A stretch of DNA of 63,707 nucleotides, filler included. It is 9 parts of 9 records of this genome, joined end to end, with 100 filler letters (N's around TTAATTAATTAA, not from the genome) between each part and the next. Parts side by side here need not be neighbours in the genome. Positions count along the whole stretch, not along the records: positions 44,055 to 50,327 come from SRR31147125_51610; 8 more parts are not named here. One strand, written 5' to 3'. This document shows positions 7,701 to 63,300 of the stretch, piece after piece; positions within the stretch are counted from its first letter, which is position 1, and each line of letters opens with the position of its first letter. A program made the position numbers and the translations under genes. The notes below the pieces were generated by a model. The model was not told the origin of the DNA and ran no database searches. It was given only the letters and a program-made list of their open reading frames with translations.

Positions 7701-7800
7701 NNNNNNNNNNNNNNNNNNNNNNNNNNNNNNNNNNNNNNNNNNNNTTAATTAATTAANNNNNNNNNNNNNNNNNNNNNNNNNNNNNNNNNNNNNNNNNNNN
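7701..7800. other. Artificial contig linker (also at 16107-16206, 24420-24519, 31194-31293, 36487-36586, 43955-44054, 50328-50427, 58210-58309)
   Basis: N44-TTAATTAATTAA-N44 with stops in all six frames; GC content and gene content change abruptly at each one. Confidence 0.99.
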
Positions 7801-16106: not shown

Positions 16107-16400
16107 NNNNNNNNNNNNNNNNNNNNNNNNNNNNNNNNNNNNNNNNNNNNTTAATTAATTAANNNNNNNNNNNNNNNNNNNNNNNNNNNNNNNNNNNNNN
16201 NNNNNNGAGTTTCGATCGGTTCGTTTTCGACACTCACTTAAAAGGTAAAAGAGGCAGCAGATGCCTCCTCAAAAATGCACCCGGGTAAGCGCTAAATGGA
16301 AGGGATGGAAAAATCACACCGAACATATTGACAGCGTAAGGCTTTATATTTAAATGTTTTCTATGTCAACAAGGTTCCTCAACAAAGGATAAGAGATACG

Positions 16401-24391: not shown

Positions 24392-24519
24392 ATAAGGCCA
24401 ATCCCCCAAAAGAGCCCCCNNNNNNNNNNNNNNNNNNNNNNNNNNNNNNNNNNNNNNNNNNNNTTAATTAATTAANNNNNNNNNNNNNNNNNNNNNNNNN
24501 NNNNNNNNNNNNNNNNNNN

Positions 24520-25687: not shown

Positions 25688-27778
25688 TTATCTAATCAAA
25701 TGGAGCTTTTTAGTATCAGCAAATGTATCAGTTTGTAATTGATATAAATAAACTCCGCTTGCGATACCTTCAGCATTCCATTCAAATGTATAACTGCCTG
25801 CAATGAGAAATTTATTTATTATTGTTTCAACTTCTTCTCCTAACAAATTATAAACTTTCAAAGTAACAAATCCAGACCGCTGCAAAGAAAATTGAATGGC
25901 TGTTGTCGGATTAAAAGGATTTGGATAATTTTGTTCAAGAGAGAACGTTAATAACTGTTCGTTTAAAATATCCTCAACAGGAGTCGTTTTTAGAACACTT
26001 TTAAATACGCCTCCACCAACAGTACCCGCAAAAATGAAATCATTCGAATCAACATGTAATGACCAAACCACTTGATGGGTTAAGCCGCTATTAATAGGCA
26101 TCCAAGTTTCACCATTATTCATTGAACGGAAAACCCCTGCTCCAGAACATGCAAATACCTGGCCAGCTGAATTAACAGCGAGTGAAAGAATATCGTAACT
26201 AGTTGAACTTGTAAAGAATTGTTCCCAATTATCTCCGTTATCTGTTGAACGGTAAACAATACCATTTTCAGAGCCAGCAAAAATATCATCGTTTGAATTA
26301 ATTGTGAGGGCTCCAGTATATAAGTTTATTCGTCCATTATTTACAGCAGTCCAACTATCTCCGTTGTCTGTTGAGCGAAAAACACCATAATTATCAGTGC
26401 CAGCAAAAATATGGTTTTGAGAATTAATGGTAAGAGACAAAACTTTATAATTCTCTTTTAAAGTTTGCGACCAACTGTTTCCGTTATCTATGGAACGGTA
26501 AATTCCATTACTAGAAGTTCCAGCAAAAATATGCCCGGCATTATTTATAGCAACAGACCATATCCATTTATTTTCCAGGCTGCCTTGATTCCATGTTTGC
26601 CCATTGTCTTTTGAGTGAAAAATTCCACTGTTCGTTCCAGTAAAAATGTGGCCAGAAGAATTAATGGCAATTGCTAAAACAAAAAAGTTTTCTAATCCTG
26701 TTCGAAGCCAATTTTCACCCTTGTCTTGTGAACTGTAAATACCGTATGATCCTCCTGCAAATAAATCTCCATTTTTCACATTGTTAATTGACAGAACGTA
26801 TTTAACGAATGTGCCAGGTTGGCTCCAATTTCCTCCGGTATCCTTCGAGATAAAAACACCGTTATTTTTTGTGCCTGCATAGACATCTCCATTAGAATTG
26901 ATCGCTAAAGCCTGTACATCCAGGTCGGTCAATCCTTTTTTCACTATAGTCCAATTTTCGCCATTATTGGTAGAACGAAAAATTCCTTTTTTTAACGTCC
27001 CTGCAAATATATGATTATTTAAATTAATGGAGAGAGTTTGAACTTCTTTTGTTGTCAGCCCGCTATTAATCTCAATCCAGCTTTCTCCATTATCATCCGA
27101 ACGAAAGATACCAAGCCCGGTTCCTGCAAAAATTTGGTTATTCGAATTAATAGCAATATCCATTACTGCGGTATTAGAAAGTCCGACATGATTCCAGTTA
27201 TCACCATTGTCCATTGAACGGAAAACGCCACCTGCTATCCCTACAAAAATATGTCCTTCAGAATTGATCGAAATAGCATTAATTACAGCATTTGTTAAAC
27301 CGATAAGAGTCCAATTTTCACCGTTATCTACTGAACGGAAAATTCCGTCCGATAAACTTCCTGCAAAAATATGCCCATTTTTATTGATAGCAAGAATTAA
27401 TCTTAATGTAATCTCCAATCTTATTTGTAAGTTAGTCCAATTTTCACCGTTATCAAATGAACGATACACCCCATCATACATAGTTCCAGCGAAAATATGT
27501 CCATTAAGATTTATGGCAAAAGAAGTTACCCATGCCCATGGATTATTGGTTATCGACGGCATATCTAGCTGAGTCCAATTGTTGCCGCGATCAAATGAAC
27601 GAAAAACACCTTTATTTACAGTACCCGCAAATACATGCCCACTATCATTAATTGCAAGAGACTCAACATTTCCTGTATAAGGGCCTTTCGTCTGATACCA
27701 ATAATTATCTTGTGAGAATGCTATTGTAAAACAAAATATGTACAATGCAATGCTTAAGATAAACTTATAATATTTCAT
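25688..27778 (-). CDS. Secreted beta-propeller (Asp-box/BNR repeat) protein with T9SS type-A C-terminal domain
   Basis: About 14 repeats of LAINSxGHIFAGT…GVFRSxDNGxNW; C-terminal QNYPNPFNPTT…SGVYLYQL…KKL. Confidence 0.9.
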   Translation of the reverse strand: MKYYKFILSIALYIFCFTIAFSQDNYWYQTKGPYTGNVESLAINDSGHVFAGTVNKGVFRSFDRGNNWTQLDMPSITNNPWAWVTSFAINLNGHIFAGTMYDGVYRSFDNGENWTNLQIRLEITLRLILAINKNGHIFAGSLSDGIFRSVDNGENWTLIGLTNAVINAISINSEGHIFVGIAGGVFRSMDNGDNWNHVGLSNTAVMDIAINSNNQIFAGTGLGIFRSDDNGESWIEINSGLTTKEVQTLSINLNNHIFAGTLKKGIFRSTNNGENWTIVKKGLTDLDVQALAINSNGDVYAGTKNNGVFISKDTGGNWSQPGTFVKYVLSINNVKNGDLFAGGSYGIYSSQDKGENWLRTGLENFFVLAIAINSSGHIFTGTNSGIFHSKDNGQTWNQGSLENKWIWSVAINNAGHIFAGTSSNGIYRSIDNGNSWSQTLKENYKVLSLTINSQNHIFAGTDNYGVFRSTDNGDSWTAVNNGRINLYTGALTINSNDDIFAGSENGIVYRSTDNGDNWEQFFTSSTSYDILSLAVNSAGQVFACSGAGVFRSMNNGETWMPINSGLTHQVVWSLHVDSNDFIFAGTVGGGVFKSVLKTTPVEDILNEQLLTFSLEQNYPNPFNPTTAIQFSLQRSGFVTLKVYNLLGEEVETIINKFLIAGSYTFEWNAEGIASGVYLYQLQTDTFADTKKLHLIR

Positions 27779-31123: not shown

Positions 31124-31877
31124 ATTTGCACCTCGCTTTTAAATAAAAGTGATCTACCTACGTGATGTTATCATCGATAAAATCCGACACAGANNNNNNN
31201 NNNNNNNNNNNNNNNNNNNNNNNNNNNNNNNNNNNNNTTAATTAATTAANNNNNNNNNNNNNNNNNNNNNNNNNNNNNNNNNNNNNNNNNNNNAAAAATT
31301 TCTTAATCTTATGAAATTTTAAAAGCAGGTTTTGTAGTTATTAATAACAATTAATGTGGGAATACTTTCTGGAGCCCAGCATCGTTGATGCTCTTTTTTA
31401 GACGTATACCGGGATTGTAATAAATACTTATCTTTCGAAGGTATATCCTTTGTCTCTGCCATAACTTCGCTACTAATCATCGGTTAAGTTGAGCCTATTT
31501 TTCAAACCTCACAATATTACTTCCTGTCAATTTGTTAGCGAGAACATTCTCTAGCGCTATAATAACAATACTAATTTCTGGTTCACTCAGCGCAGGGAAT
31601 TTTTTAAATTTCCTTTATAAACTCGTCAATTGTTTATTTTCTTTATTAATAACATTCACATAATACTTTTTTTTACCACCGCCTGCAATTCAAGAGAGAT
31701 TGTTAATTTTTCGAATCTGCATGGGATTGAGTCTTTGGAAAATTTTTGTAAAAACCAAATAAACAAATATAAAATGTCTTTAGAACTTGTTGGTATTTGA
31801 GAAATAAAATCCTTGCTTTTAACCGACAAGTAAGAAAATCTTATACTAAAATTTATTCATTTCAAAATTTTCACATT

Positions 31878-36486: not shown

Positions 36487-36586
36487 NNNNNNNNNNNNNN
36501 NNNNNNNNNNNNNNNNNNNNNNNNNNNNNNTTAATTAATTAANNNNNNNNNNNNNNNNNNNNNNNNNNNNNNNNNNNNNNNNNNNN

Positions 36587-38226: not shown

Positions 38227-39609
38227 TCAAACAGCAAAAACCTTTGGATCCAGATTTTTGAAAAAATGTTCATGTAATCGATTGATAATCTTTTCCAACT
38301 CCTCTTCATCAATGACAAAACTAATATTGATTTCAGAAGCACCCTGGGAAATGAGGTGTACAGGGACATCATCCAATAACGCAAATATCTTTCCTGGAAT
38401 TCCGGGAGTGGTCTTCATAGCCTCTCCGACCAGACAGACAATAGCATTACCTTTTTTCACCTCCACTTCGGCAAATCTGCCCAGTTCATTGGTAATTTCT
38501 CGTAATCGTTCGGTATTATCTATGGTCATGGAAACACTGACCTCAGATGTGGAAACCAGGTCAATAGATGTCTGGTAGCGATCAAAAACCTCAAATATAT
38601 GCGCCATGAAACCATGAGACATCAACATTCGGGTAGAAGTAACCGTGATAACCGTAAGACCTTCCTTGTAGGCAATGGATTTGACGATACATTCGCCATT
38701 TTGTCCATTGTTTTTGGTATTGGATATTTTCGTACCACTTTCAGCAGGACGCATGGAATTGAGAACATATACTGGAATATTTCGCTCGATGGCCGGCAAC
38801 AGCGTGGATGGGTGCAGGACTTTGGCGCCAAAATAGGCCAATTCCGCTGCTTCCTGAAAACTCATTGTCAGGATCCTCGTTGCTGTTGGTACCAGCGACG
38901 GATCCGCTGTCAATACACCATCTACGTCAGACCAGATTTCAACAATATCCACATCAAGCATGGCACCTATTAATGTAGCTGAGTAATCAGATCCGCCTCG
39001 TCCCAATGTGGTAATACGACTAAACGTATCCCTGCCAACAAAGCCCTGTAAAATAGGTACCTTTTTCTCCTGCAGAGCAGGCAATAATTGACTTTTGGCG
39101 TTTTTCTTTGATTCATCAAACAAGGGTTTGGCGCTGCCAAATTCCGAGTTGGTAACGATGATGTCACGTGCATCCATCATATAACCGTTTATACCCATTT
39201 TCTGCAGATGACAGGCCAGTATATGAGCTGACAGGAACTCGCCCATACTCGTCAGTTCATCACTCTTGATTTTTGCCGCTTCATCACTCGTTGTTTTTTG
39301 CTCGCTTAATTCTTTTAACCGATCCAGACCCTTTTGAATATGGACCAGCAATTCCTGATTATCCTGCAATTCAAGACCGCGAATAATGTCCATATGAATG
39401 GATTCAATTGTCGTAAGGTATTTTTCCTGCACAGAAGCATCATTTGATGCCGATTCTTTTGTCAAAGCCACCAGTTTATCTGTAATACCACCAACGGCAG
39501 ATGTCACCACTACAGGCTCCTGAGGTAAACGACTTTTAATAATTTCACAGACGCGTTGAATGGCAGACGCGCTACCAACGGAAGTACCACCGAATTTCAT
39601 TGTGATCAT
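38227..39609 (-). CDS. lysC: Aspartate kinase (lysine-sensitive AKIII-like)
   Basis: MKFGGTSVG, TTLGRGGSDYSA and FGAKVLHP motifs; two ACT domains. Confidence 0.95.
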   Translation of the reverse strand: MITMKFGGTSVGSASAIQRVCEIIKSRLPQEPVVVTSAVGGITDKLVALTKESASNDASVQEKYLTTIESIHMDIIRGLELQDNQELLVHIQKGLDRLKELSEQKTTSDEAAKIKSDELTSMGEFLSAHILACHLQKMGINGYMMDARDIIVTNSEFGSAKPLFDESKKNAKSQLLPALQEKKVPILQGFVGRDTFSRITTLGRGGSDYSATLIGAMLDVDIVEIWSDVDGVLTADPSLVPTATRILTMSFQEAAELAYFGAKVLHPSTLLPAIERNIPVYVLNSMRPAESGTKISNTKNNGQNGECIVKSIAYKEGLTVITVTSTRMLMSHGFMAHIFEVFDRYQTSIDLVSTSEVSVSMTIDNTERLREITNELGRFAEVEVKKGNAIVCLVGEAMKTTPGIPGKIFALLDDVPVHLISQGASEINISFVIDEEELEKIINRLHEHFFKNLDPKVFAV

Positions 39610-43790: not shown

Positions 43791-44054
43791 ATTTAAACGT
43801 TTAAACGCTTTACACGGTAAAAGAGACTGTAAAGTAATAAATATAGTAGAAATAGAATCACTTTTGTCGAGATATAACCAGGCGGTATTTGTGTTTCGTT
43901 TTGATTACTGATTTGAGAACGCCTGTATTTTTGGGTTTCGTGCGCAACATCCCCNNNNNNNNNNNNNNNNNNNNNNNNNNNNNNNNNNNNNNNNNNNNTT
44001 AATTAATTAANNNNNNNNNNNNNNNNNNNNNNNNNNNNNNNNNNNNNNNNNNNN

Positions 44055-45378
44055 CGCGGTCTCCCCCGTTGACGGCCGCTACCGGCGGGCCACCGCCGCC
44101 CTGTCCGATTACTTCAGCGAAGGCGCCCTGATCCGCTACCGGGTGCATGTGGAGATCGAGTATTTTATCGCCCTGTGCCAGTTGCCCCTGCCTCCGCTGG
44201 CCGATATTGATCCGGCGCTGTTCGAGCCTTTGCGCGACATATCGCGGCAGTTCAACATGGACGACGCCGCCCGGATCAAGGAGATCGAGAAGACCACCAA
44301 CCACGATGTCAAGGCAGTGGAGTATTTCGTCAAGGAGAAATTCGACGCGCTGGGCCTTTCCGCCCACAAGGAGTTCATCCATTTTGGATTGACATCCCAG
44401 GATATCAACAACACGGCCATGCCGCTTTCCTTGAAAGGCGCCTGGCAGTCGGTGATGCTGCCCTCCCTGGAGACTGTGGTGGCCGATCTGACAGCCAAGA
44501 CCCGGACCTGGAAAGATGTGTCCATGCTGGCCCGCACCCATGGCCAGCCGGCCTCGCCCACCCGATTGGGCAAGGAGATCCTGGTGTTTGTGGACCGCCT
44601 TAAGGAGCAGATGAAGCTTCTTGAGGCCGTTCCCTTTGCCGCCAAGTTCGGCAGCGCCACCGGCAATTTCAACGCCCACCACGTGGCCTACCCAGAGATC
44701 GACTGGAACGGTTTTGCCAATCATTTGCTGGGGGCGGTGCTGGGGCTGCACCGCTCGCGCGTGACCACCCAGATCGAGCATTACGACCATCTGGCGGCAT
44801 TCTGCGACGGGGTAAAACGCATAAACACCATCTTGTTGGACCTGTGCCGGGACCTGTGGACCTATATCTCCATGGATTATTTCAAGCAGAAAATCAAAAA
44901 GGGCGAGATCGGCTCCTCGACCATGCCCCACAAAGTCAACCCCATCGACTTCGAAAACGCCGAGGGCAACCTGGGGCTGGCCAACGCCGTCCTGGAACAT
45001 CTGGCGGCCAAGCTGCCCATCTCCCGGCTGCAGCGCGATCTGACCGACTCCACCGTGACCCGCAATATCGGCGTACCCCTGGGCCACACCCTGATCGCCT
45101 TCAAATCGATTCTGCGAGGGCTGGACAAGCTGATTCTCAATGACAACGCGCTGAAAATGGATCTTGACCGCAATTGGGCCGTGGTGGCGGAAGGCATTCA
45201 GACCATCCTGCGCCGGGAAGGCTATCCCAATCCCTACGAGGCCCTGCTGGCGCTGACGCGCACCCACGCGGCCATCGACCGGAAGGCGATCGCCGATTTC
45301 ATCAACGGTCTGGATGTGAACGCGGCGGTGAAAGCGGAGCTCTTGGCCATTACGCCGGAGAACTACACCGGTATTTAG
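44055..45378 (+). CDS. purB: Adenylosuccinate lyase, 5'-truncated
   Basis: SPVDGRY, TNHDVKAVEY, ARTHGQPA and GSSTMPHKVNPIDFEN motifs. Confidence 0.97.
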
Positions 45379-45391
45379 ACCCACAAGTTTC

Positions 45392-46384
45392 ATGCCCAAA
45401 CTATACATCAAAGAATATGCACGCGCCCTTGCCGGCCGGCGAGTCTTCATCGCCTGCCGGGAGGGCATCCTGCGTGACCATTTTCAGGATATCATCGCCG
45501 ACATCAAGTTCCTGGCCCGCCACAGTGCCAGGCCCACCTTGCTGCACAACATGCCCAACCGCTTCGCCAACCAGAAGCTGGTCAAAACATTAGCGCAGCG
45601 CTTGCCGACCACCCATGTCGTTCGCATCAACCCGGAAATCGATTTCTACGATGCGGTGCTGAACCATAGTGAATCCATGTTCAAGGTCATCTTCCTGGAG
45701 CGCCGCTATATTATCGATAGCAAGGGAAACAAGATCAACGCCATCACCACCGGCCGGGTCCGGGAAACCCTGGCGGACTTCGGCGACCTGATCGCCAATG
45801 TGAATTTCAAGGGCGCCCTGGCCCGCATCTGCGAGAAGATCGAGGTCGGCCGGTGCGATCGTGTGCATATACTGCCGGCGGACAAGAACACCATCAAGCA
45901 TGAGCTGTTTACCGTGGAAGGGTCCGGGACTCTGATCGCCAACAACTTCGAGGAAACCTTCCGCCAGGTGCAGACCGACGAAGACGTGGCCATTGTCCAT
46001 CGGATTCTGACCATGTACAAACGCTCGGGATTCTTGAAACCCCGTTCCAAAACCTATCTTAGCGACAATCGTCGCCATTTCTTCGTGACCGCCATCGACG
46101 GCATCGTGGTGGGCTGCATCGAGCAGAAGATCATCGACGAGCAGACCGTCGAACTGGGTGCCCTGGCCATTTCCACTCGTTTCCGCAATCAGCGGGTGGG
46201 CGTGCATACGGTCAAATCCTTCATGGACCTGATGCGCGAGAAGGGCTATTCGCGCTTCATTTCTCTCACCAATAATCCCCGTTTGAAAGAACTCTACTTC
46301 CAGCTGGGTTTCGTCCAGGAAAGCCTACCGGAATACCAGGCGCGCCAAGCCCAGAGCCCGGATGTGGAGATGTTTTTTCTATAG
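45392..46384 (+). CDS. ArgA-like protein: reduced amino-acid-kinase-like domain plus GNAT acetyltransferase
   Basis: RVHIL…ELFTVEGSGTLI linker as in N-acetylglutamate synthase; GNAT RFRNQRVG motif. Confidence 0.7.
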   Translation: MPKLYIKEYARALAGRRVFIACREGILRDHFQDIIADIKFLARHSARPTLLHNMPNRFANQKLVKTLAQRLPTTHVVRINPEIDFYDAVLNHSESMFKVIFLERRYIIDSKGNKINAITTGRVRETLADFGDLIANVNFKGALARICEKIEVGRCDRVHILPADKNTIKHELFTVEGSGTLIANNFEETFRQVQTDEDVAIVHRILTMYKRSGFLKPRSKTYLSDNRRHFFVTAIDGIVVGCIEQKIIDEQTVELGALAISTRFRNQRVGVHTVKSFMDLMREKGYSRFISLTNNPRLKELYFQLGFVQESLPEYQARQAQSPDVEMFFL

Positions 46385-46469
46385 GTGCCTTGACCAGCAG
46401 GAGTCCGGCTGAAAGCCCGGGGTGGTAAGGATAACTATCTGTAATAAAAGTAAAAGGGTCGAAGGGATG

Positions 46470-46720
46470 GCATGGTTAGAGGCCATTTCGCGATTTTCGG
46501 GGTTAAAAATCGCCTGATTGCGCCTCCCGAATTTCGAGTACCCCTTCGGAGGGTTGAATAAAACGGCCCCTTACCATGGCTCCCACGGCGTCTTTAATGC
46601 GTTCGATGAACAGACTGCTTCCCACGGCAATACTCTCCCTCCACCGGCTTCCGCTTTTGGCTTCAATCTCTTCCAGCGCTGCCTGAATTCATTATCTCGT
46701 TGGCAATGTACCCAGGTTTG
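46470..46720 (-). mobile_element. Remnant of a REP-associated/IS200-like transposase C-terminus
   Basis: Minus strand reads RWRESIAVGSSLFIERIKDAVGAMVRGR…LEIREAQ, resembling from memory the WTxSIAVGS tail of such transposases; no intact ORF. Confidence 0.45.
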
Positions 46721-46904
46721 GGGATCACATTGCCTGGGCCTCATCGGGCAGCCATGTTTTCGCCAACTCCGTCATCGGCGCCCGATCCAACCGGGACGGA
46801 GACCATGCAGCCTTGGCGCGGCCATCACCGGGGTAATTCCGGAATATCGTAAAAATCAAGGGGCTTTTATATACCATGACGGTTACCGGTGCCGCAGGAT
46901 TGAT

Positions 46905-47093
46905 TCACTTTATATCATTCCCCCGCCTGGGCAGCATATCGACGGCGCGGCGTTAAAGGCCTATATGAAGGCGCGCCTGGCCAGCTACAAAGTGCCCAAG
47001 GCATTCATCGAGGTTGACGAACTGCCCAAAAGCAGCGCCGGCAAGTTGTTGAAACGTGAGATCCGAGAAGCCTATGCTGCACCGAAACGTTGA
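46905..47093 (+). pseudogene. Orphan C-terminal fragment of an acyl-CoA ligase (AMP-binding_C)
   Basis: LKAYMKARLASYKVPK…VDELPKSSAGKLLKR; the upstream part of ORF 46518-47093 is not ligase-like. Confidence 0.75.
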
Positions 47094-47134
47094 ATCTTCC
47101 CGAAACTTGAGCGGCATCATCACCAATTGACGGA

Positions 47135-48752
47135 TCATGCGGTGGATGACGAATTCTCACCGCTGACCCGGGAGGGCGCGAAGCAAAACGGATCCTTGTG
47201 GGTAAAAATGTCCTGTTTCAGGCTGTAGGCCATCGCCAAGCAACCCCGGCAGACCATATTCAGTGTGCATTGGCGGCAAGCCGCCACTCCGTTTCGAAAT
47301 CGTTCGGCACGTTCGCTGTGGTAAATATCGTAGAGGGTGGATGATGGAACGGACCCTATAAGCGAGGGGAATTTCCTGCAAGCGTGCACTTCACCGTCTG
47401 GCAGAAGGGCCAAAAATTAAATGCGGCACCGCATCCATGCCCCGTACATCCGCCAAAGGGGGGCAGTCCTTGCTCCTCCAATACAATGTTGATCAGGTTA
47501 TCCTTGAGTCCCAGGATGGGGTTCCCCGTCGTGGCGGCGTGATACTCGCCCAAAAACGCTTGGAATACCGATGGGTCCGGCATCAGTAGACTGGCACCTT
47601 CGCCCACGGTGGAGAGACGGTTGAACGTGAAGAAGTCCACCCGCGTCCTGAGCATTTCCGCCAGCGGCAGCACCTGATCGATGTTGTTGCGGGTCAGGGT
47701 CAGCATCACCATGGCATAAATTCCCAGCGTGCGCAGTTCATCCATGAAGGTGAGGGAACGCTTAGAATGACCCTCGCCGCGAATCTGATCGTTATGCACC
47801 TGCAAGCCTTCGAGGCTGATCTGGTAGAACAGGGGGGGAGCGATGTTCAGGATTTCGCGGATCCTTTGTTTTGGGGCGGGGTTGCCAAGAATGGCGACAC
47901 CGAAACCGTAGTTCGCCAGCGGACCGATAAACAGAATCAAAATAGGGATAAAGCAGGGGGTTGCCGCCGGTGAATGAGATTTGGCCGCGTACGTGCATCC
48001 GGCGGCAGAAGCTGTAAAAATCATCCAGAATGCCCATGGCCGTGTCAAGGGCCAGCGGTGAGCGTTGGCTGCGATCGTAACAGTGCTTGCAGTGCAGGTC
48101 GCAGGATTGCGTGACATGCCATTGCAAGGTGAAAACATCGCTCGAGAGAAATGGCACAAGGTTTTCTGGCACCGGTATGTCCTGCCTGCGTCGCACGCGG
48201 GAAGCCGGGCTGATCAGAATGCCCTGCTCGACGCCCCGGTCAATGGCGCTTTGGATCTCACCGACAGTGACCTTGCCGATTTCGGCCGCTTCCCTCGGAT
48301 CGACGCCATCTACGGTGAGCTTCAGTGCCAACAGGTCGATGGGTTCTGCCTCACGCACCATCTTTCGACCTGATCGGGGATGACACCAGATCATGGCATG
48401 GTTTTGCTCCTGAACCGGTTCGGGACCCTGCTTGTCCGATTGGATCAGTGTTGTCAGATGCCTCCACGCTAACGGCACCAGCGTCAATGTGGGGTTGACC
48501 ACGGTGGCGGACACCGGTGAGGGCGGAGTCTCGCCCTGCTCGCCTTTTTCGTAAAGGACCTGTTCCAGGCGTGCCAAATCAACAATGTAGGGGGGTAGTT
48601 CAAATGACGCACCCAGGTGTTCAAGGGCATCAGGAAACGACCCAGGGGGGGATCGTTTCCATTGCCACCAGCACCCTGCCCCAGGTTTGCTTACCAAGGG
48701 TGCGACGGCAAGTGGAAAATATTTCGCCGTAGGGCTTCACAATATCGGACAT
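47135..48752 (-). CDS. sbtM: Selenobiotic-family radical SAM/SPASM RiPP maturase; three frameshifts (~48648, ~47916, ~47414)
   Basis: QWHVTQSCDLHCKHCYDRS (CX3CX2C), FTGGNP, QISLEG, GGCTGHGCGAAFNF-LALLPDGEVHACRK and CRQC…VCRGC (SPASM). ATG at 48752, just downstream of the precursor. Confidence 0.88.
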
Positions 48753-48812
48753 CAGGTCAAATGGCAAAATAGGTAGTAGAAATTCCTACTCGGGGTGGTG
48801 AGCTGATTTTCT

Positions 48813-48829
48813 TCACGCAACCTGCGTGA
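48813..48829 (-). promoter_or_regulatory. SECIS-like hairpin for Sec72, located in the 3' UTR
   Basis: TCACGCA-GGT-TGCGTGA, loop starting 20 nt after the UGA. Confidence 0.78.
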
Positions 48830-48836
48830 TGATTGA

Positions 48837-49058
48837 TCAACTTCAGCCGCTTTTGCCAGGTTGCTTTTTCTGTGTGTCGGTGCCACCGGCACCGGAAGTC
48901 CCGCCACTTCAGCCGCTTGTGGAGCCACCGGCTCCAGCTTTATCGCCGCTTCAGGCGCTTTTCCCGCCTGCACAGCCGCTTACCGTTAACGTGGACCCTG
49001 CAATCAGTCCAGCGATGCAGAAGCCGGTCAGGACTTTTTTGAGGTCGTCTACATCCAT
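48837..49058 (-). CDS. sbtA: Selenocysteine-containing RiPP precursor, 73 aa with three UGA read as Sec
   Basis: MDVDDLKKVLTGFCIAGLIAGSTLTVSGCAGGKSAUSGDKAGAGGSTSGUSGGTSGAGGTDTQKKQPGKSGUS*; CAGGAG RBS; TGA at 48951-53, 48909-11 and 48843-45; SECIS-like hairpins; adjacent rSAM gene. Confidence 0.9.
48878..48894 (-). promoter_or_regulatory. SECIS-like hairpin for Sec50
   Basis: CGGTGCC-GGT-GGCACCG, loop starting 21 nt after the UGA. Confidence 0.78.
48921..48935 (-). promoter_or_regulatory. SECIS-like hairpin for Sec36
   Basis: GGAGCC-GGT-GGCTCC, loop starting 21 nt after the UGA. Confidence 0.78.
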
Positions 49059-49638
49059 GGTTTACTCCTGAGGTGGAAAAGGTTTTCCTTCAACACCCTC
49101 CTGGGGTAGGAGCTTGAAGGGCCGTTGCCCGGGTGTGGGGCAAAGATGGCATCGATAATATCAATGCTAAAAACATAGGTGATCGTTAAAAGCTATCAAA
49201 TGGCCATTCGCATGTCAACCTTACGGATAGACGGGCAATAATCACAGCGCACTGAAAAAATCGTTCCACAGTGCCAAGTCCCAAATCCATCAATAGCGAT
49301 CCCGATTTGGATTCTCCCAACAACCGATATGCGATTGCCCTGGACACCCCCCTGACAAGCACCGTATCTTTCTTTGGATCTGCCTTTATGTGTAAATGAA
49401 TTGCCCAAAATATGTACAATTATATATTCATTTTAGTTTAAAAAATAACAATATAATTGAATTTTATTTCCAAATGCTATTAATTTGTACTTGACAAATT
49501 TACTTATTTATTCGTACAAATTGTAAGTCATGGGTACAATCAAAAATCGTTTGCCGGTTTTCAGCTACCTTCTATATCTCCATGAATGCCAGTCACCCAT
49601 TATCGTTTAACGCAGTTTAAATGAAGAAAGGGGACCGC

Positions 49639-50327
49639 ATGTCTGCCACCGGCCAACTGAAACGGGAAATCGGCCTCTTTTCGGCCATCGCCATCGTCGT
49701 GGCCAACATGGTCGGCACCGGCATCTTCACCACCTCCGGTCTCATTCTGCAGGAAGTCGGCAGTCCCACGCGATTGCTTTGGGGCTGGCTGGTCGGCGGG
49801 GCCTTCGCCCTGTGCGGTGCCCTGTGCTACGGTGAGCTGGGCGCCCGCTACCCCGAAGCCGGCGGAGAATATGTTTATATTCGCGAGGCATTCGGCAAGC
49901 CCCTGGCCTTCCTATCGGGCTGGATATCGTTGATCGTCGGTTTTTCGGCCCCCATCGCGGCCGGGGCGATCGCCTTTGCCACCTATCTTCTGCGAGCTGT
50001 CGGCATCGCCACCGATATGGCGCCCGCGATCGTCGGCTCCGGTGGTCCAATTCCTGGTTTTTCTCTGCCCATGGTGCTGGCCATCACCGTGGTGATCCTG
50101 TTATCGGTCCTGCACGCCACCAGCCTGCGTGTTGGCAGCCGGGTCCAGAACCTGTTGACCCTGTTCAAGATCGCGGTGGTGATATCCTTCATTGTCGCCG
50201 GTTTGCTTTCCAAGGGCGGCAATGCCAGCCATTTCGGCATGGGCGGTTTATCGGGAAGCCTGTTGGACGCCCGCTTCGCCGTGGCATTGATTTTCATCAG
50301 CTTCGCCTACAGCGGCTGGAATGCGGC
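49639..50327 (+). CDS. APC-family amino acid permease, 3'-truncated
   Basis: LKREIGL, VANMVGTGIF, YGELGARYPEAGGEY and FAYSGWN motifs. Confidence 0.92.
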
Positions 50328-50427
50328 NNNNNNNNNNNNNNNNNNNNNNNNNNNNNNNNNNNNNNNNNNNNTTAATTAATTAANNNNNNNNNNNNNNNNN
50401 NNNNNNNNNNNNNNNNNNNNNNNNNNN

Positions 50428-51975: not shown

Positions 51976-53985
51976 ATGAAAATTAGACTGATTTTATTGC
52001 TGTTGATTATTCAAAATGTTTCGGTAGCACAAGTTAAAAAAGGTGCGTTTACCGACCCGCGTGATGGTAAAGTTTATAAAACAATTACCGTTAATGGCTA
52101 TACATGGATGGCTGAAAACCTGAATTATGAAATTGCAGGTAGTTGGCATTGGGGTGATAATCCTGTCAATGGCGAAAAGTATGGACGTTTATATAAGTTT
52201 AACACGGCTTTGAAAGCTGCACCTGCCGGGTGGCATGTTGCTTCCGATGAAGAATGGGATGCCTTGGAAAAGGCTGTAGGTGGAAATGAAATTGCCGGAA
52301 AGTATTTAAAGAGTACTGATAGCTGGGCAGAAAATGGTAACGGTTCAGATAAAATAGGTTTTTGCGCATTACCCGGTGGCGACCGTTATATCGATGGAAC
52401 GTATCGGCATCTGGGAAAACAAGGCTGTTGGTGGTCGGTTGGAGCAGGTGTAAAACAAGTTGCCAATCGTAGACTTATGGGATATGATTATGATTACGTC
52501 TATAATCATGAGCGTGGTTTGGGATATGCACGTTATGTACGTTGTGTTAAAGATTATCCCAAAGAAAAACCAAAGTTTGAAGCATCCATTGAATCTTTAA
52601 AACAGTATGAATGTCCTGAATGGTTTCGCGATGCAAAGTTTGGAATATATGTAACCTGGGGAGTATTTTCGGTAGCTGAGTTTGGAGAATGGTATCCCCG
52701 CTATATGTATTGGGAAGGCACCGATGTTTATCAGCACCACTTAAAAAACTATGGGCATCCATCAGAATTTGGGTACAAAGATTTTATTCCGATGTGGAAA
52801 GCCGAAAAATTTGACCCCGATGCTTTGATAGCCTTGTTTAAAGAAGCAGGGGCAAAATATTTTACACCATGCGCCGTACATCACGATAATTTTGATTTGT
52901 GGAATTCGAAATATCACGAATGGAATGCTGTGAATATGGGACCGAAGAAAGACATTATTGGAATGTGGAAAAAAGCAACACATAAAGCGGGTTTACGTTT
53001 TGGTGTAACCACACATTTGGCACGCAGTTATACATGGATGAATACTGCAAACTCAGCCGATACACGTGGTCCGAAAAAAGGAGTGCCTTACGATGCATTA
53101 CAAGGCAAGGGAAATGGTCTATATCCATCAAACGATGGGCAAAGTACCATGCTGAATCCTCAGGAAGATTCGCCTAGAGCATGGCGGGAAAGCTGGTTTA
53201 ATAGAATAAAGCAGCTTATTGACGACTACCAGCCCGACCATATGTATTTTGATGGTGCCGTACCCTTTGCAGGCAGCGATAAAGGGCAAACAGGAATGGA
53301 CCTTATGGCACATTATTACGATACACGCCCCGAGGGTTTCTTGTGTTACAAACAAAGGCGTTCGGGTATTTTTGTTGAGGGAATGGGAACGCTTGACCAC
53401 GAACGTGGAAAAGCTGAGAAAATTTTTAAGGAACCCTGGCAAACGGATGATGCGCTTGGCCCGTGGAGCTACATAAAAGATGCAACTTATATGACACCTG
53501 ATTTGGTAATCGATAAATTGGTTGATATTGTAAGTAAAAACGGAAATATGCTTTTGTGTGTTCCGTTGAAAGCTGAGGGAACTCTTGACGACGAAACCAT
53601 ACAGATATTGAAAAACGTGGGCGATTGGTTTAAAATGAATGGTGAAGCAATTTATGGTTCGCGCCCATGGCATACTTCAGGAGAGGGTGAAAGTGGTATT
53701 GGTGATTGGGACCAAAAATCGCAAATGACTTCTCGTGATATTCGGTTTACTACAAAGGGTAACACGCTTTATGCGATTGTTTTGGATTGGGCAGATAAAA
53801 ATAACCGCGTAACAATTAATAAGCTTGGTAGCGAAAAATTGAAAGCAGGTAAAATAAGAAGTGTTGAAATGATTGGCTACGGTGGCAATTTAAAATGGGA
53901 ACAATTTGGCGACAGGCTACAGGTGCAGTTTCCTAAAAAGAAAGTTGGCAACTATGCCCATGTGTTAAAAATTGAGATGGAATAA
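51976..53985 (+). CDS. FISUMP (Fibrobacter major paralogous) domain fused to GH29 alpha-L-fucosidase
   Basis: FTDPRDGKVYKT…WMAENLNY…YGRLY…VRCVKD, then PEWFRDAKFGI, HHDNFDLW, YFDG and DIVSKNGNMLL. Confidence 0.88.
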   Translation: MKIRLILLLLIIQNVSVAQVKKGAFTDPRDGKVYKTITVNGYTWMAENLNYEIAGSWHWGDNPVNGEKYGRLYKFNTALKAAPAGWHVASDEEWDALEKAVGGNEIAGKYLKSTDSWAENGNGSDKIGFCALPGGDRYIDGTYRHLGKQGCWWSVGAGVKQVANRRLMGYDYDYVYNHERGLGYARYVRCVKDYPKEKPKFEASIESLKQYECPEWFRDAKFGIYVTWGVFSVAEFGEWYPRYMYWEGTDVYQHHLKNYGHPSEFGYKDFIPMWKAEKFDPDALIALFKEAGAKYFTPCAVHHDNFDLWNSKYHEWNAVNMGPKKDIIGMWKKATHKAGLRFGVTTHLARSYTWMNTANSADTRGPKKGVPYDALQGKGNGLYPSNDGQSTMLNPQEDSPRAWRESWFNRIKQLIDDYQPDHMYFDGAVPFAGSDKGQTGMDLMAHYYDTRPEGFLCYKQRRSGIFVEGMGTLDHERGKAEKIFKEPWQTDDALGPWSYIKDATYMTPDLVIDKLVDIVSKNGNMLLCVPLKAEGTLDDETIQILKNVGDWFKMNGEAIYGSRPWHTSGEGESGIGDWDQKSQMTSRDIRFTTKGNTLYAIVLDWADKNNRVTINKLGSEKLKAGKIRSVEMIGYGGNLKWEQFGDRLQVQFPKKKVGNYAHVLKIEME

Positions 53986-58123: not shown

Positions 58124-58309
58124 ATTTGATATTTTGTTTTGCCAGATTGAATAATACTATGTATATCCGCGTTGTATTAGCATTAGCACGTCATGCTGTC
58201 CGGCAGCTGNNNNNNNNNNNNNNNNNNNNNNNNNNNNNNNNNNNNNNNNNNNNTTAATTAATTAANNNNNNNNNNNNNNNNNNNNNNNNNNNNNNNNNNN
58301 NNNNNNNNN

Positions 58310-60374: not shown

Positions 60375-63300
60375 ATGAGTAGGACAACCCATTTCTTTCT
60401 GATTGTGGATCTATTGGAGAATCTGGCACGCCAGGAGATGGCCGAGGGTCGGGTGGTGGGGTATTCAGACGAGGTACTCTTGTATTGTTCGCACGTGAGA
60501 AGACATTAATCGTCTCTCAGCGTGCTGTGGTTGGAAATGCAGCCATTCTGTTGTTTCAAGCGGTCCAGCAGACGCTGTCCACGGATGTTGCAGCCTTAGA
60601 GGGTGCTTTGCCCATGCTCTTCAACTTATTGACAAAAGATCACTCTGGTGAGTACATCAAACCACACGTGCCAGCCACATCAGGGGCTGACACGGGTGGT
60701 TCGTAGTTCGATTTGCTTCTTATGGAGTGATTGCGCCTGTGTCCATGTCCTCTCCCCAGCTTCTTGCCAACTACGTGGGCCTCCGTGTCCGATCCTCTCG
60801 TGGGACATTGCTTACCTCCTCTTGCTCTCAGGTTCCTCAGTTGTTTGCTGTGGTTCGACAGTTCGCAAACCTCCTCATCCCTCTTCTCAACCTATACGCT
60901 GTCTGTCCCGACCACTTTGTTGCACACGTGGATGTGCTGTTTGGTACGTGGGTTGAGTGTTGTCGGTGTGGCGTGATGCAACTCCCTTCAGACATCTATG
61001 AGAACGAATCAAGTAATCGAGCTGCTTTGGTTGAGATATTCGGAGACATGGCAAAGCGACAGCCACTCGCTCTTGAACCGTACGTTCCCATACTGGGCAT
61101 CCCCTATACTTACCACAAAACCCACTAGACACGTCACCAAGCTTCGAACTTCACTGGAAGGCAACAAGGAAGCCGGATTTGCTGTGGCGGTCATTCGGGT
61201 TTGTGTCCGTCACCATCATCATCATCATCATCATCATGGAGACACACAGCTCACATCTCCCCACAGGAGGTAGCGATGCGGCGCCCCGTATCTGTCTTGC
61301 CCTTGGTTCCAGCCTTGTGTAAGGTCATGCCACGGATTGCCAAGGAATCGAAGACGGTGATTGATTTGGTTGGGGAGATGACAACAGTACGGTAACACAT
61401 GTGCAGATTCGAATAGGGTTAATTCAAACCATGGGATTGCTTGCCAGGACATCTGAGGATGCGATTCATGATGGTGGGTGACGGTGTGGTACCTTGTAGC
61501 GTCCTGATGCCCGTGCAGCAATGAGTCTTTTTGCCTCCATTCTGAAAAAGTCGTTTACGGACACAGATGCCGTCCTATACAAGGTGCGATGTTTGCTCGT
61601 ATACAAGGGTGGCCCAGCTTATCCTGTGTCTAGACTCTCATCCCCACAGTACTTCTCGAAATGGGGCGAATTGCACAACCCAACCCACAGATCTTGGTGG
61701 GTGGGTGTATGCGTCTGCCTGTCTCTGTTTGTAATGTCCCGTTAGATGCCTCATGTGGAATTGATTCGACGCTTAACAAACGAACAATCTACACCTATTC
61801 GTAGGAGTGCGAGTGCCCTTGTGCAACTTGCGGAAAGCCACGTACCTCTTCCCAACGATTTTGATGACACATTGGAGAGTGGAACCCGAATCACGCCACG
61901 GGAGGCAGCACCCCCACCCCCATCACAAGCACAAGTAGATCGGCGACGAGACATTGTGAAAGAACCACCCAAATGGGTTCCGGACATGGCGGCGCCCCAG
62001 GTGGGTTGGACTCCCGCCCCCGTCTCCCATTTGCCTGAATGGTTGGTGATCCAGTGTTTCAAATGTGGAGCGACGTTTTGGCTTCTGCGGCGTAGACATC
62101 ACTGTCGACACTGTGGACAAGTGTTGTGCAAGGCGTGTACCTCAAACAGCTTTCCACTTCCCCAATTCGGCGCCCAGTGCGTCTCAAATCGGATACCATG
62201 CAATTCTTCTCATCTATTGGGCACAGGTTTGAGCGGCCCGTCCGTGTATGTGATGACTGCTACGGAACTCTTTGCAGTACGTAGAAGGCACAGAAGAAGC
62301 TCCATCATCCAATCTATATGACGACACAGAGGATGAAATGAAAAAACGGAATCAGACCCTTCCCATCCAGACAATGCAGAAATCGGGTTACATGCACGAC
62401 GTGAGGTGTGTTGTCTCGTGTCTCTCGTGGTTTGTCATTCATTACACCGACTCTTGGATCCAGGAAGAAACTCTTCTTCACACGAAGTCGACGTATGTGG
62501 TTTGTGTTGGGAGAGCAACAGCTAGATGCCTATAGTCAAGCAAGAGTACGTGTCCTGCCTGTCTGCCTGTCTGTTTGCCGGCCTGCCCTCTCATCCCAAT
62601 GATTTCAGTCCTCGAAGCGTTTGACGACTGTGAAACTTGGGGACATCCTTCGTCTCAGGTACACCACGGGCTACTACGGGATTCCCCAGACCTCGATTTC
62701 TCACAATCCCCGCCCGTCCTGTAAGTGAGTCCAAGCTTGGATCCACCTTTGCCCTTTCCACAAGAAAGGGGACGACTGTTCTTCGAGCAGACAGTGCATC
62801 CGATCGTGAGCAATGGACGTGCGTACTCTTGATTGTAGGTGTGTGTGATTCTCGTGATTCTTACAAGGTGTGATCGGGATAGTCGTGCCATCCAGTGTAA
62901 CATGTCGGCATTAGCCCAATCAGGTCTTCTCTAGTAAACGATCCCATGATCCTGTGTTCCTACGGAAGAAAGAGAGTGGAGCACGTGAACGCTGGGGATG
63001 CCAATGGGAAGACACGGCAACCCAACCGCCTCACTCCCCCCCTCCCGTCCCCGTATGGAGGATCCCCCGCCCTTGTACGATGCGGCTCGTCCCACTCCCT
63101 TGCTCGCACGCGTACTAGAGAAACGTCATCGGGGGACCACAAGCCCCAAACGGAGGAAGAGTCGATCCGGACACCACCGCTCCTCCCCCTCCCGGTTCTT
63201 CCTTCCCATCGTACGGCCTTCCAACGATGTCTAGAAGAAGTCAACGGGGATGTATCTGCTCTGTTACAATCCCTTGCCCAATGGCTGCGGGAAGAGGGCC

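Follow-up and report, generated by a model that had tools for sequence, protein, structure and literature searches.

The closest described system is SbtA/SbtM, a precursor peptide and its maturase represented by the curated models TIGR04081 and TIGR04082 and known earlier as the 'selenobiotic family' or 'selenobacteriocin'. Lewis et al. 2021 studied the SbtM of Geobacter in vitro, as cited in the available text of PMC9204691, PMC11002830 and PMC13188914, and the first two of these describe, in the same portions, the removal of four hydrogens from a Gly-Cys or Gly-Sec unit to give a thio- or selenooxazole (PMC9204691, PMC11002830). On the number of selenocysteines (Sec), the passages available from PMC9204691 give SbtA precursors 'at least two SeCys', and Table 1 of a 2026 review, in its accessible part, lists 'Selenobacteriocin, TIGR04081, SGUG' with 2 Sec, the same part of the review placing 2-3 Sec in only a small subset of prokaryotic selenoprotein families (PMC13188914). 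In its accessible part, a preprint (10.1101/2025.11.18.689057) assigns the substrate modified by SbtM to the 5-thiooxazole compounds on the basis of its absorbance near 305 nm. The family, the chemistry of its maturase and its curated models are already known, and the member described here is in the expected lineage.

This member lies in a window of 63,707 nucleotides, the whole stretch of DNA analysed here, and we put at about 90% the probability that sbtA and sbtM together make up a genuine two-gene operon belonging to the known thio(seleno)oxazole RiPP family, carried on a short Desulfosarcina-like contig. The analysis bases this reading on family membership, conserved U columns in the precursor, hairpins with covariation and an intact maturase in a second assembly. 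The locus shares with the described system a leader recognised by the curated model, an adjacent radical SAM/SPASM gene with a CxxxCxxC motif, (G/A/S)-Sec-(S/G) units each with a putative SECIS element, and a Desulfobacteria-like background. Nothing essential differs, although the window's member has 3 predicted Sec in place of the 2 tabulated and a core motif of SA/SG-U-S in place of the GGUG of Geobacter SbtA. The features of the two genes are as follows.

48837..49058, minus strand: coding sequence of sbtA (73 codons, then a TGA stop), with Sec predicted at codons 36, 50 and 72 from translation with TGA=U
49065..49070, minus strand: Shine-Dalgarno-like CAGGAG, 6 nt 5' of the sbtA ATG (49058-49056), read from the sequence itself
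48975..49058, minus strand: SbtA leader, residues 1-28, with a Lys-Lys n-region, a hydrophobic stretch and a lipobox-like T-V-S-G before Cys29
48951..48953, minus strand: UGA codon 36, predicted Sec1, context KSA-U-SG
48909..48911, minus strand: UGA codon 50, predicted Sec2, context TSG-U-SG
48843..48845, minus strand: UGA codon 72, predicted Sec3, context KSG-U-S; Ser73 and the UGA stop come next
47135..48752, minus strand: sbtM, radical SAM/SPASM thio(seleno)oxazole maturase, from TIGR04082 pieces, tblastn of the homologue P0002 and the motif CDLHCKHC; TGA stop

With TGA read as U, the SbtA frame begins MDVDDLKKVLTGFCIAGLIAGSTLTVSGCAGG and continues into a core rich in Gly and Ser, in which Cys29 (context SG-C-A) precedes all three Sec codons and translation stops at a TGA at codon 74 (48837-48839). 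An earlier note on this DNA had described an ATG at 49058, a CAGGAG ribosome-binding site, a hydrophobic leader and a Gly/Ser-rich core, and its coordinates and description proved exact; the three in-frame UGAs that it listed (SA-U-S, SG-U-S, SG-U-S) and the earlier SG-C-A all read in frame with TGA=U. Its assignment of the locus to the SbtA/SbtM family likewise held, with the leader above the TIGR04081 cut-off and the downstream gene matching TIGR04082 in two pieces. Residues 1-26 of SbtA aligned to positions 1-26 of 27 of the NCBIfam profile TIGR04081 at 46.9 bits (cut-off 30.5), and the SbtA peptide had no Pfam match.

As the note had also reported, the radical SAM/SPASM gene follows on the same strand, with the SbtM ATG at 48752, 85 nt past the last base of the sbtA stop. 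Within the window sbtM is spread over three frames, with breaks near 48644 (in a C7 run), 47918 (at GG) and 47411 (in a T5 run); its two TIGR04082 matches scored 266.1 bits (profile 24-273) and 255.0 bits (271-439), each below the 350-bit cut-off, and Pfam gave weak Radical_SAM matches only. When the N-terminal piece was compared with 5.8 billion proteins, 846 matches were obtained at E<=0.001, the best 58% identical, and many of these were labelled selenobiotic/SbtM maturase by JGI or NCBI. SbtM homologues carry Pfam PF13186, which we take to be the SPASM domain.

The three breaks raise the question of whether the operon is a decaying relic, in which sbtM is a true pseudogene and no modified peptide is made. 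We consider this very improbable. Despite the breaks, tblastn with P0002 recovered sbtM as three frame segments of 58-69% identity without internal stops, the C-terminal segments aligning at 67-69% identity to GCGAAFNF and HACRKFPS, which are conserved in the SbtM alignment. Moreover, 94% of the words sampled from 47100-49150 occur in the public run X1, and a 5285-bp contig from this run (depth 31.6) that spans the whole interval differs from the window at exactly the three break sites (two letters more at 48644, one fewer at 47918 and one more at 47411) and by one swap of two adjacent bases (47764-47765), with nothing else changed and zero differences in sbtA (48837-49058). With these differences applied, sbtM becomes one 539-aa frame without an in-frame TGA, 65% identical to P0011 (498 residues) and 64% identical to P0002 (497 residues), with the CxxxCxxC motif CDLHCKHC at residue 218 and with residues 39-533 aligning to 505-aa homologues up to their last residue. 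Because three frame-restoring indels are accompanied by almost no substitutions, the breaks are most likely errors of the homopolymer-length type in the window's contig rather than decay. The note had spoken of a maturase in need of repair, a description that does not fit the X1 contig, where all three breaks are absent; X1 is possibly the window's own sample and is to be read as a second assembly, not as independent biology. Were the three frameshifts to reflect a real strain, the SbtA peptide there would go unmodified.

The decoding of the UGAs was assessed by comparison with related loci. A scan of contigs from one genome per species gave at least 600 pattern-matched stretches, at least 560 of them with an SbtM relative by tblastn, and the best 80 of these were kept. 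Six-frame translation of these 80 loci with TGA read-through, searched by phmmer with the window's leader (E<=0.01), identified 69 SbtA candidates in 66 of the SbtM loci, themselves the best 80 of at least 560, and almost every candidate directly precedes SbtM and is encoded on its strand. The closest precursors within this set (L002, L003 and L001) likewise span 73 codons and carry U at 36, 50 and 72, and the window's U36, U50 and U72 align with the U columns of L001-L004 and others. These columns, their spacing and the residues downstream are kept even in relatives in which SbtM identity to the window's is down to 53-62%. The note had proposed that homologues be checked for Cys or Sec at the UGA columns, and both occur, the U columns being shared and Cys standing in place of Sec in, for example, L029 and L055, the latter with KSAC where the window has KSAU. 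Matches to selA and selB above cut-off were found in all three genomes with the closest SbtA homologues (G001, G002 and G003); ARAGORN detected no tRNA, including tRNA-Sec, in the window, and no sel genes were present among the 44 ORFs scanned there. The selA match in G002 (G002:C7:52326-53393) covers profile positions 98-453 only and contains one in-frame TGA, and may be a truncated or frameshifted call in a metagenome-assembled genome (MAG).

Among 70 precursors, the window's included and the others drawn from the best 80 of at least 560 loci, 0, 1, 2, 3 and 4 Sec were counted in 8, 4, 18, 36 and 4, respectively, from residue 28 on and with a U-x-U ending taken as Sec-x-stop. The rows for L069 (short), L073 (reads through) and L042 (masked) are doubtful, and since the 80 loci were selected by similarity to a single query, the distribution is not an unbiased census. 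These counts suggest that three Sec is usual, that four occurs and that the window's SbtA would be a normal member rather than an exceptional one; three are also present in 35 of the 69 other precursors extracted from these best 80 of at least 560 loci. Thus, of the note's description of a multi-Sec member, the three Sec codons stand, but there is nothing special in them, three being the mode of the family in this sample (36/70).

Each UGA of the window's sbtA is followed by a hairpin, listed below.

48920..48936, minus strand: SECIS-like hairpin 1, UGGAGCC-GGU-GGCUCCA, 14 nt after UGA36; in frame, encoding G-A-G-G-S
48878..48894, minus strand: SECIS-like hairpin 2, CGGUGCC-GGU-GGCACCG, 14 nt after UGA50; in frame, encoding G-A-G-G-T
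48813..48829, minus strand: SECIS-like hairpin 3, UCACGCA-GGU-UGCGUGA, 13 nt after UGA72; in the 3'UTR, between sbtA and sbtM

In all three cases the hairpin stands 13-14 nt past the in-frame UGA and combines a perfect 7-bp stem with a GGU triloop, as would be expected for bacterial SECIS elements. Using a family-wide criterion (score >=6, loop <=5, within 9-20 nt of the codon), we found a hairpin after 103 of 164 core UGAs, the corresponding figures being 3 of 58 for core Cys codons and 132 of 3000 (4.4%) for TGAs drawn at random from the same loci, an enrichment of about 14-fold after core UGAs. For hairpin 3, RNAalifold on 32 homologous 3' ends predicted 6 pairs; four of them covary, both partners having changed with pairing kept in 14-18 sequences per pair, and the two at the apex (G-C/C-G) do not vary among these homologues. 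The minimum-free-energy z-score was clear for hairpin 3 (-3.16) and weak for hairpins 1 (-1.41) and 2 (-1.46), and Rfam over 48600-49300 at E<=10 returned no SECIS family, only a chance miRNA match. No T-run follows hairpin 3, and we therefore ruled it out as an intrinsic terminator. The stop codon UGA74 lies only 7 nt from hairpin 3; in the 32 aligned homologous 3' ends TGA, TAG and TAA interchange at the stop column, and the stop directly follows the last Sec codon, with no intervening codon, in 2 of the 32.

The in-frame hairpins also appear to leave a mark on the peptide. Among family precursors, 75 of 127 internal Sec have a G[AT][GV][GSD] motif after them, compared with 1 of 55 internal Cys, and this single Cys is that of L055, at a column that is Sec in close relatives. 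Because the in-frame hairpins would dictate the codons of the G-A-G-G-S/T motif, the GAGG repeats are probably the peptide shadow of in-frame SECIS hairpins. In L055 itself (L055:2371-2838, Desulfospira joergensenii), Cys occupies the first Sec column and G-A-G-S is retained downstream, which looks like a recent Sec-to-Cys change with a relic of the SECIS-encoded peptide.

The sbtA gene is largely hidden from standard annotation. The table 11 ORF list contains over sbtA only a 73-aa GTG frame in another register, and no frame spans the gene. Among proteins of 40-130 aa in the collection of 5.8 billion there were only 3 SbtA matches: P0242 (87 aa), 76% identical to the window's SbtA, carries W at all four TGAs, the stop included, and was apparently called under a TGA=Trp code; P0244 was called only as far as the first UGA; and the third ends at the last UGA and has non-Cys residues at the first two Sec columns. 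The note's claim that such a gene is invisible to standard gene calling is borne out for generic calling by these 3 matches; a curated TIGR04081 model and at least one RefSeq accession tabulated with 2 Sec do, however, exist. The window's sbtA provides a clean worked example of how multi-Sec genes are missed or mistranslated in large protein collections.

The missing spanning frame, the truncated call of P0244 and the weak energies of hairpins 1 and 2 would all agree with the first UGA being a real stop, such that only a 35-residue hydrophobic peptide is made and the frame downstream is a coincidence of low-complexity, GC-rich sequence. A coincidence of this kind would not account for U columns, spacing and downstream residues that persist at the SbtM divergence given above, for Cys replacing Sec at homologous columns, for the enrichment of hairpins after UGAs, or for the conserved arrangement of one codon plus a stop after the last UGA, and we judge this reading more improbable still than that of a decaying relic. 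That TGA is read as an ordinary amino acid (code 4 or 25), with Trp or Gly at the three positions, as the W residues deposited in P0242 might imply, is hardly credible, because on the same contig TGA closes sbtM and orf191 at the position where their homologues end, PurB, the GNAT protein and the 539-aa SbtM have no in-frame TGA, and simple recoding would leave the hairpins that follow the UGAs without a function.

Returning to the operon as a genuine member of the family, we propose that sbtA is translated to a 73-residue precursor in which UGA36, UGA50 and UGA72 would each be read as Sec because a SelB-type SECIS hairpin of its own follows each of them at 13-14 nt, two of these hairpins lying in the reading frame, where they would dictate the G-A-G-G-S/T motif, and the third in the 3'UTR, and that UGA74 would terminate translation. 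SbtM, with its radical SAM and SPASM clusters, would then convert each (Gly/Ala)-Sec unit to a selenooxazole by the chemistry of Geobacter SbtM in vitro. The N-terminal 28 residues would serve both as recognition leader and as lipoprotein-type signal peptide, and the modified core of about 45 residues would be exported by the general Sec (secretion) pathway and cleaved before Cys29, so that a dedicated protease or transporter, neither of which is conserved nearby, would be unnecessary. In this scheme the insertion of Sec, the conversion of all three sites, the export and lipidation of the peptide and its biological role are predictions from sequence. In our sample three Sec, each with its own SECIS, appears to be the norm, which would be a modest correction to the 2 Sec given in the available part of the review table.

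Several features of the leader suggest that it doubles as a Sec-pathway, lipoprotein-type signal peptide. Residues 9-24 have a mean Kyte-Doolittle value of 1.88, and a lipobox pattern that we take to be PS00013-like matches IAGSTLTVSGC, ending at Cys29. Family-wide, the pattern is matched by 37 of 70 precursors in strict form and by 54 of 70 in the relaxed form x-x-[GAS]-C, the strict match stopping at Cys29 for the window's leader and for 33 of those 37. A Cys is present at residues 26-32 in 56 of the 70; 13 of 70 have no Cys at the lipobox place and Ala-rich ends instead, and 1 of 70 has Sec there. Cys29 is accordingly placed where lipidation could occur, and we consider it at least as likely to be a lipidation site as a fourth heterocycle. 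Like lipoprotein signal peptides cleaved by SPase II at a lipobox, the SbtA leader has Lys-Lys in its n-region, then a hydrophobic core some 16 residues long, and V-S-G-C at -3 to +1; it differs in that the same stretch is also the TIGR04081 RiPP leader and in that 13 of 70 members have no Cys, and its link to Lgt/LspA is putative. Apart from SbtM, and from ORF clusters overlapping SbtM or SbtA coordinates on either strand, which we took to be shadow frames, no neighbouring gene family was common to more than 9 of 81 loci, which fits reliance on housekeeping export and signal peptidases. A lipoprotein-like leader with no conserved export genes nearby provides a testable idea on the destination of the mature product.

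In one locus from the Olavius algarvensis Delta 4 endosymbiont (L013:2262-2879), the lipobox position is occupied by an in-frame UGA (LSA-U-ATG) and not by Cys. A hairpin scan after this UGA found none, and the codon could be a fourth Sec, a sequencing error or the sign of a broken gene.

A further comparison is offered by the copper-binding bufferins/captophorins of the MNIO/DUF692 systems, whose heterocycle is of the same type as the SbtM product and whose precursors, like SbtA, are small and rich in Gly and Ser. Bufferin precursors carry Sec-type signal peptides. Their maturase is an O2-dependent iron enzyme, whereas SbtM is an oxygen-independent radical SAM enzyme and the chalcogen is selenium. 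By analogy, the shared 5-thiooxazole type motivates a possible metal-binding role for SbtA products. We suggest, as a tentative proposal that we think less likely to be right than wrong, that SbtA peptides are not diffusible 'bacteriocins' but exported cell-envelope peptides, lipidated at Cys29 and bearing three selenooxazoles, which would form an anaerobic, radical-SAM selenium counterpart of the bufferins/captophorins acting in soft-metal binding or redox buffering, with GAGG a SECIS shadow of no peptide function. If this is true, 3-4 Sec per approximately 45 mature residues would place these peptides among the most Sec-dense bacterial gene products.

The genomic setting of the operon is limited to a single contig. 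The window consists of nine contigs of 5.2-8.3 kb, with GC of 0.327-0.558, split by eight 100-nt linkers that each consist of 44 N, TTAATTAATTAA and 44 N.

7701-7800, 16107-16206, 24420-24519, 31194-31293, 36487-36586, 43955-44054, 50328-50427 and 58210-58309: artificial linkers
44055..50327, no strand assigned: sbt contig, 6273 bp, GC 0.558, carrying a purB-like gene, a GNAT gene, orf191, the SbtM and SbtA genes and a cut amino-acid permease gene

Because the linkers between contigs are artificial, gene neighbourhood across them is meaningless, and the concatenation of mixed contigs affects any reading from neighbouring genes in the window. For the same reason the note's proposal to look for selA/selB/selC/selD in the source bin is no valid check on this stretch. 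The sbt contig looks Desulfosarcina-like, its purB-like protein (44143-45378) being 82%, 81% and 73% identical to those of G001, G002 and G003, respectively; G001 is the genome of L003, from a record titled Desulfosarcina alkanivorans. The neighbouring contig (36587-43954) looks KSB1-like, as its aspartokinase (38227-39609) is 62-63% identical to 'candidate division KSB1' proteins and 94% identical to one unnamed protein, with a best identity of about 33% in 401 genomes of the class of G001. Judging from these genes, the contigs of the window are of mixed origin, or unrelated. At both of its ends the sbt contig shows a step in GC from about 0.3 to 0.6, and a horizontally acquired high-GC island in a KSB1 genome was considered and rejected, the 'junctions' being artificial linkers. 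Genes truncated relative to Pfam were likewise rejected as a sign of an indel-rich assembly, since several truncations are contig ends: the truncated dapA, Oxidored_FMN and amino-acid permease genes simply end there. On the sbt contig, orf191 (46518-47093, plus strand) matches the C-terminal part of acyl-CoA synthetases (profile approximately 465-519 of 523) over the last 55 or so of its 191 residues, and may be a gene remnant or another frame error.

Some minor observations concern the distribution of the family. SbtM loci were present in MAGs labelled, as deposited, Nitrospirota/Nitrospiraceae, Chloroflexota and Gammaproteobacteria (L021, L033, L035, L043, L048, L049 and others) in addition to Desulfobacterota, a range of labels wider than the 'Geobacter and Desulfobacteria' of the available text of PMC9204691. 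Two SbtA-like precursors occur near one SbtM in L036, L021 and L077; in L077 one copy has 1 Sec and Cys and the other Cys only.

Elsewhere in the window, a 191-aa frame (61746-62321, plus strand) matches the Pfam FYVE zinc finger (E 2.9e-12), a domain known mostly from eukaryotes. Two further proteins on low-GC contigs, a BNR/sortilin-repeat protein with a Por_Secre_tail (T9SS sorting) domain (25688-27778, minus strand) and a fucosidase with a Fib_succ_major domain (51976-53985, plus strand), are indicative of an organism of the FCB group, with no relation to the sbt contig.
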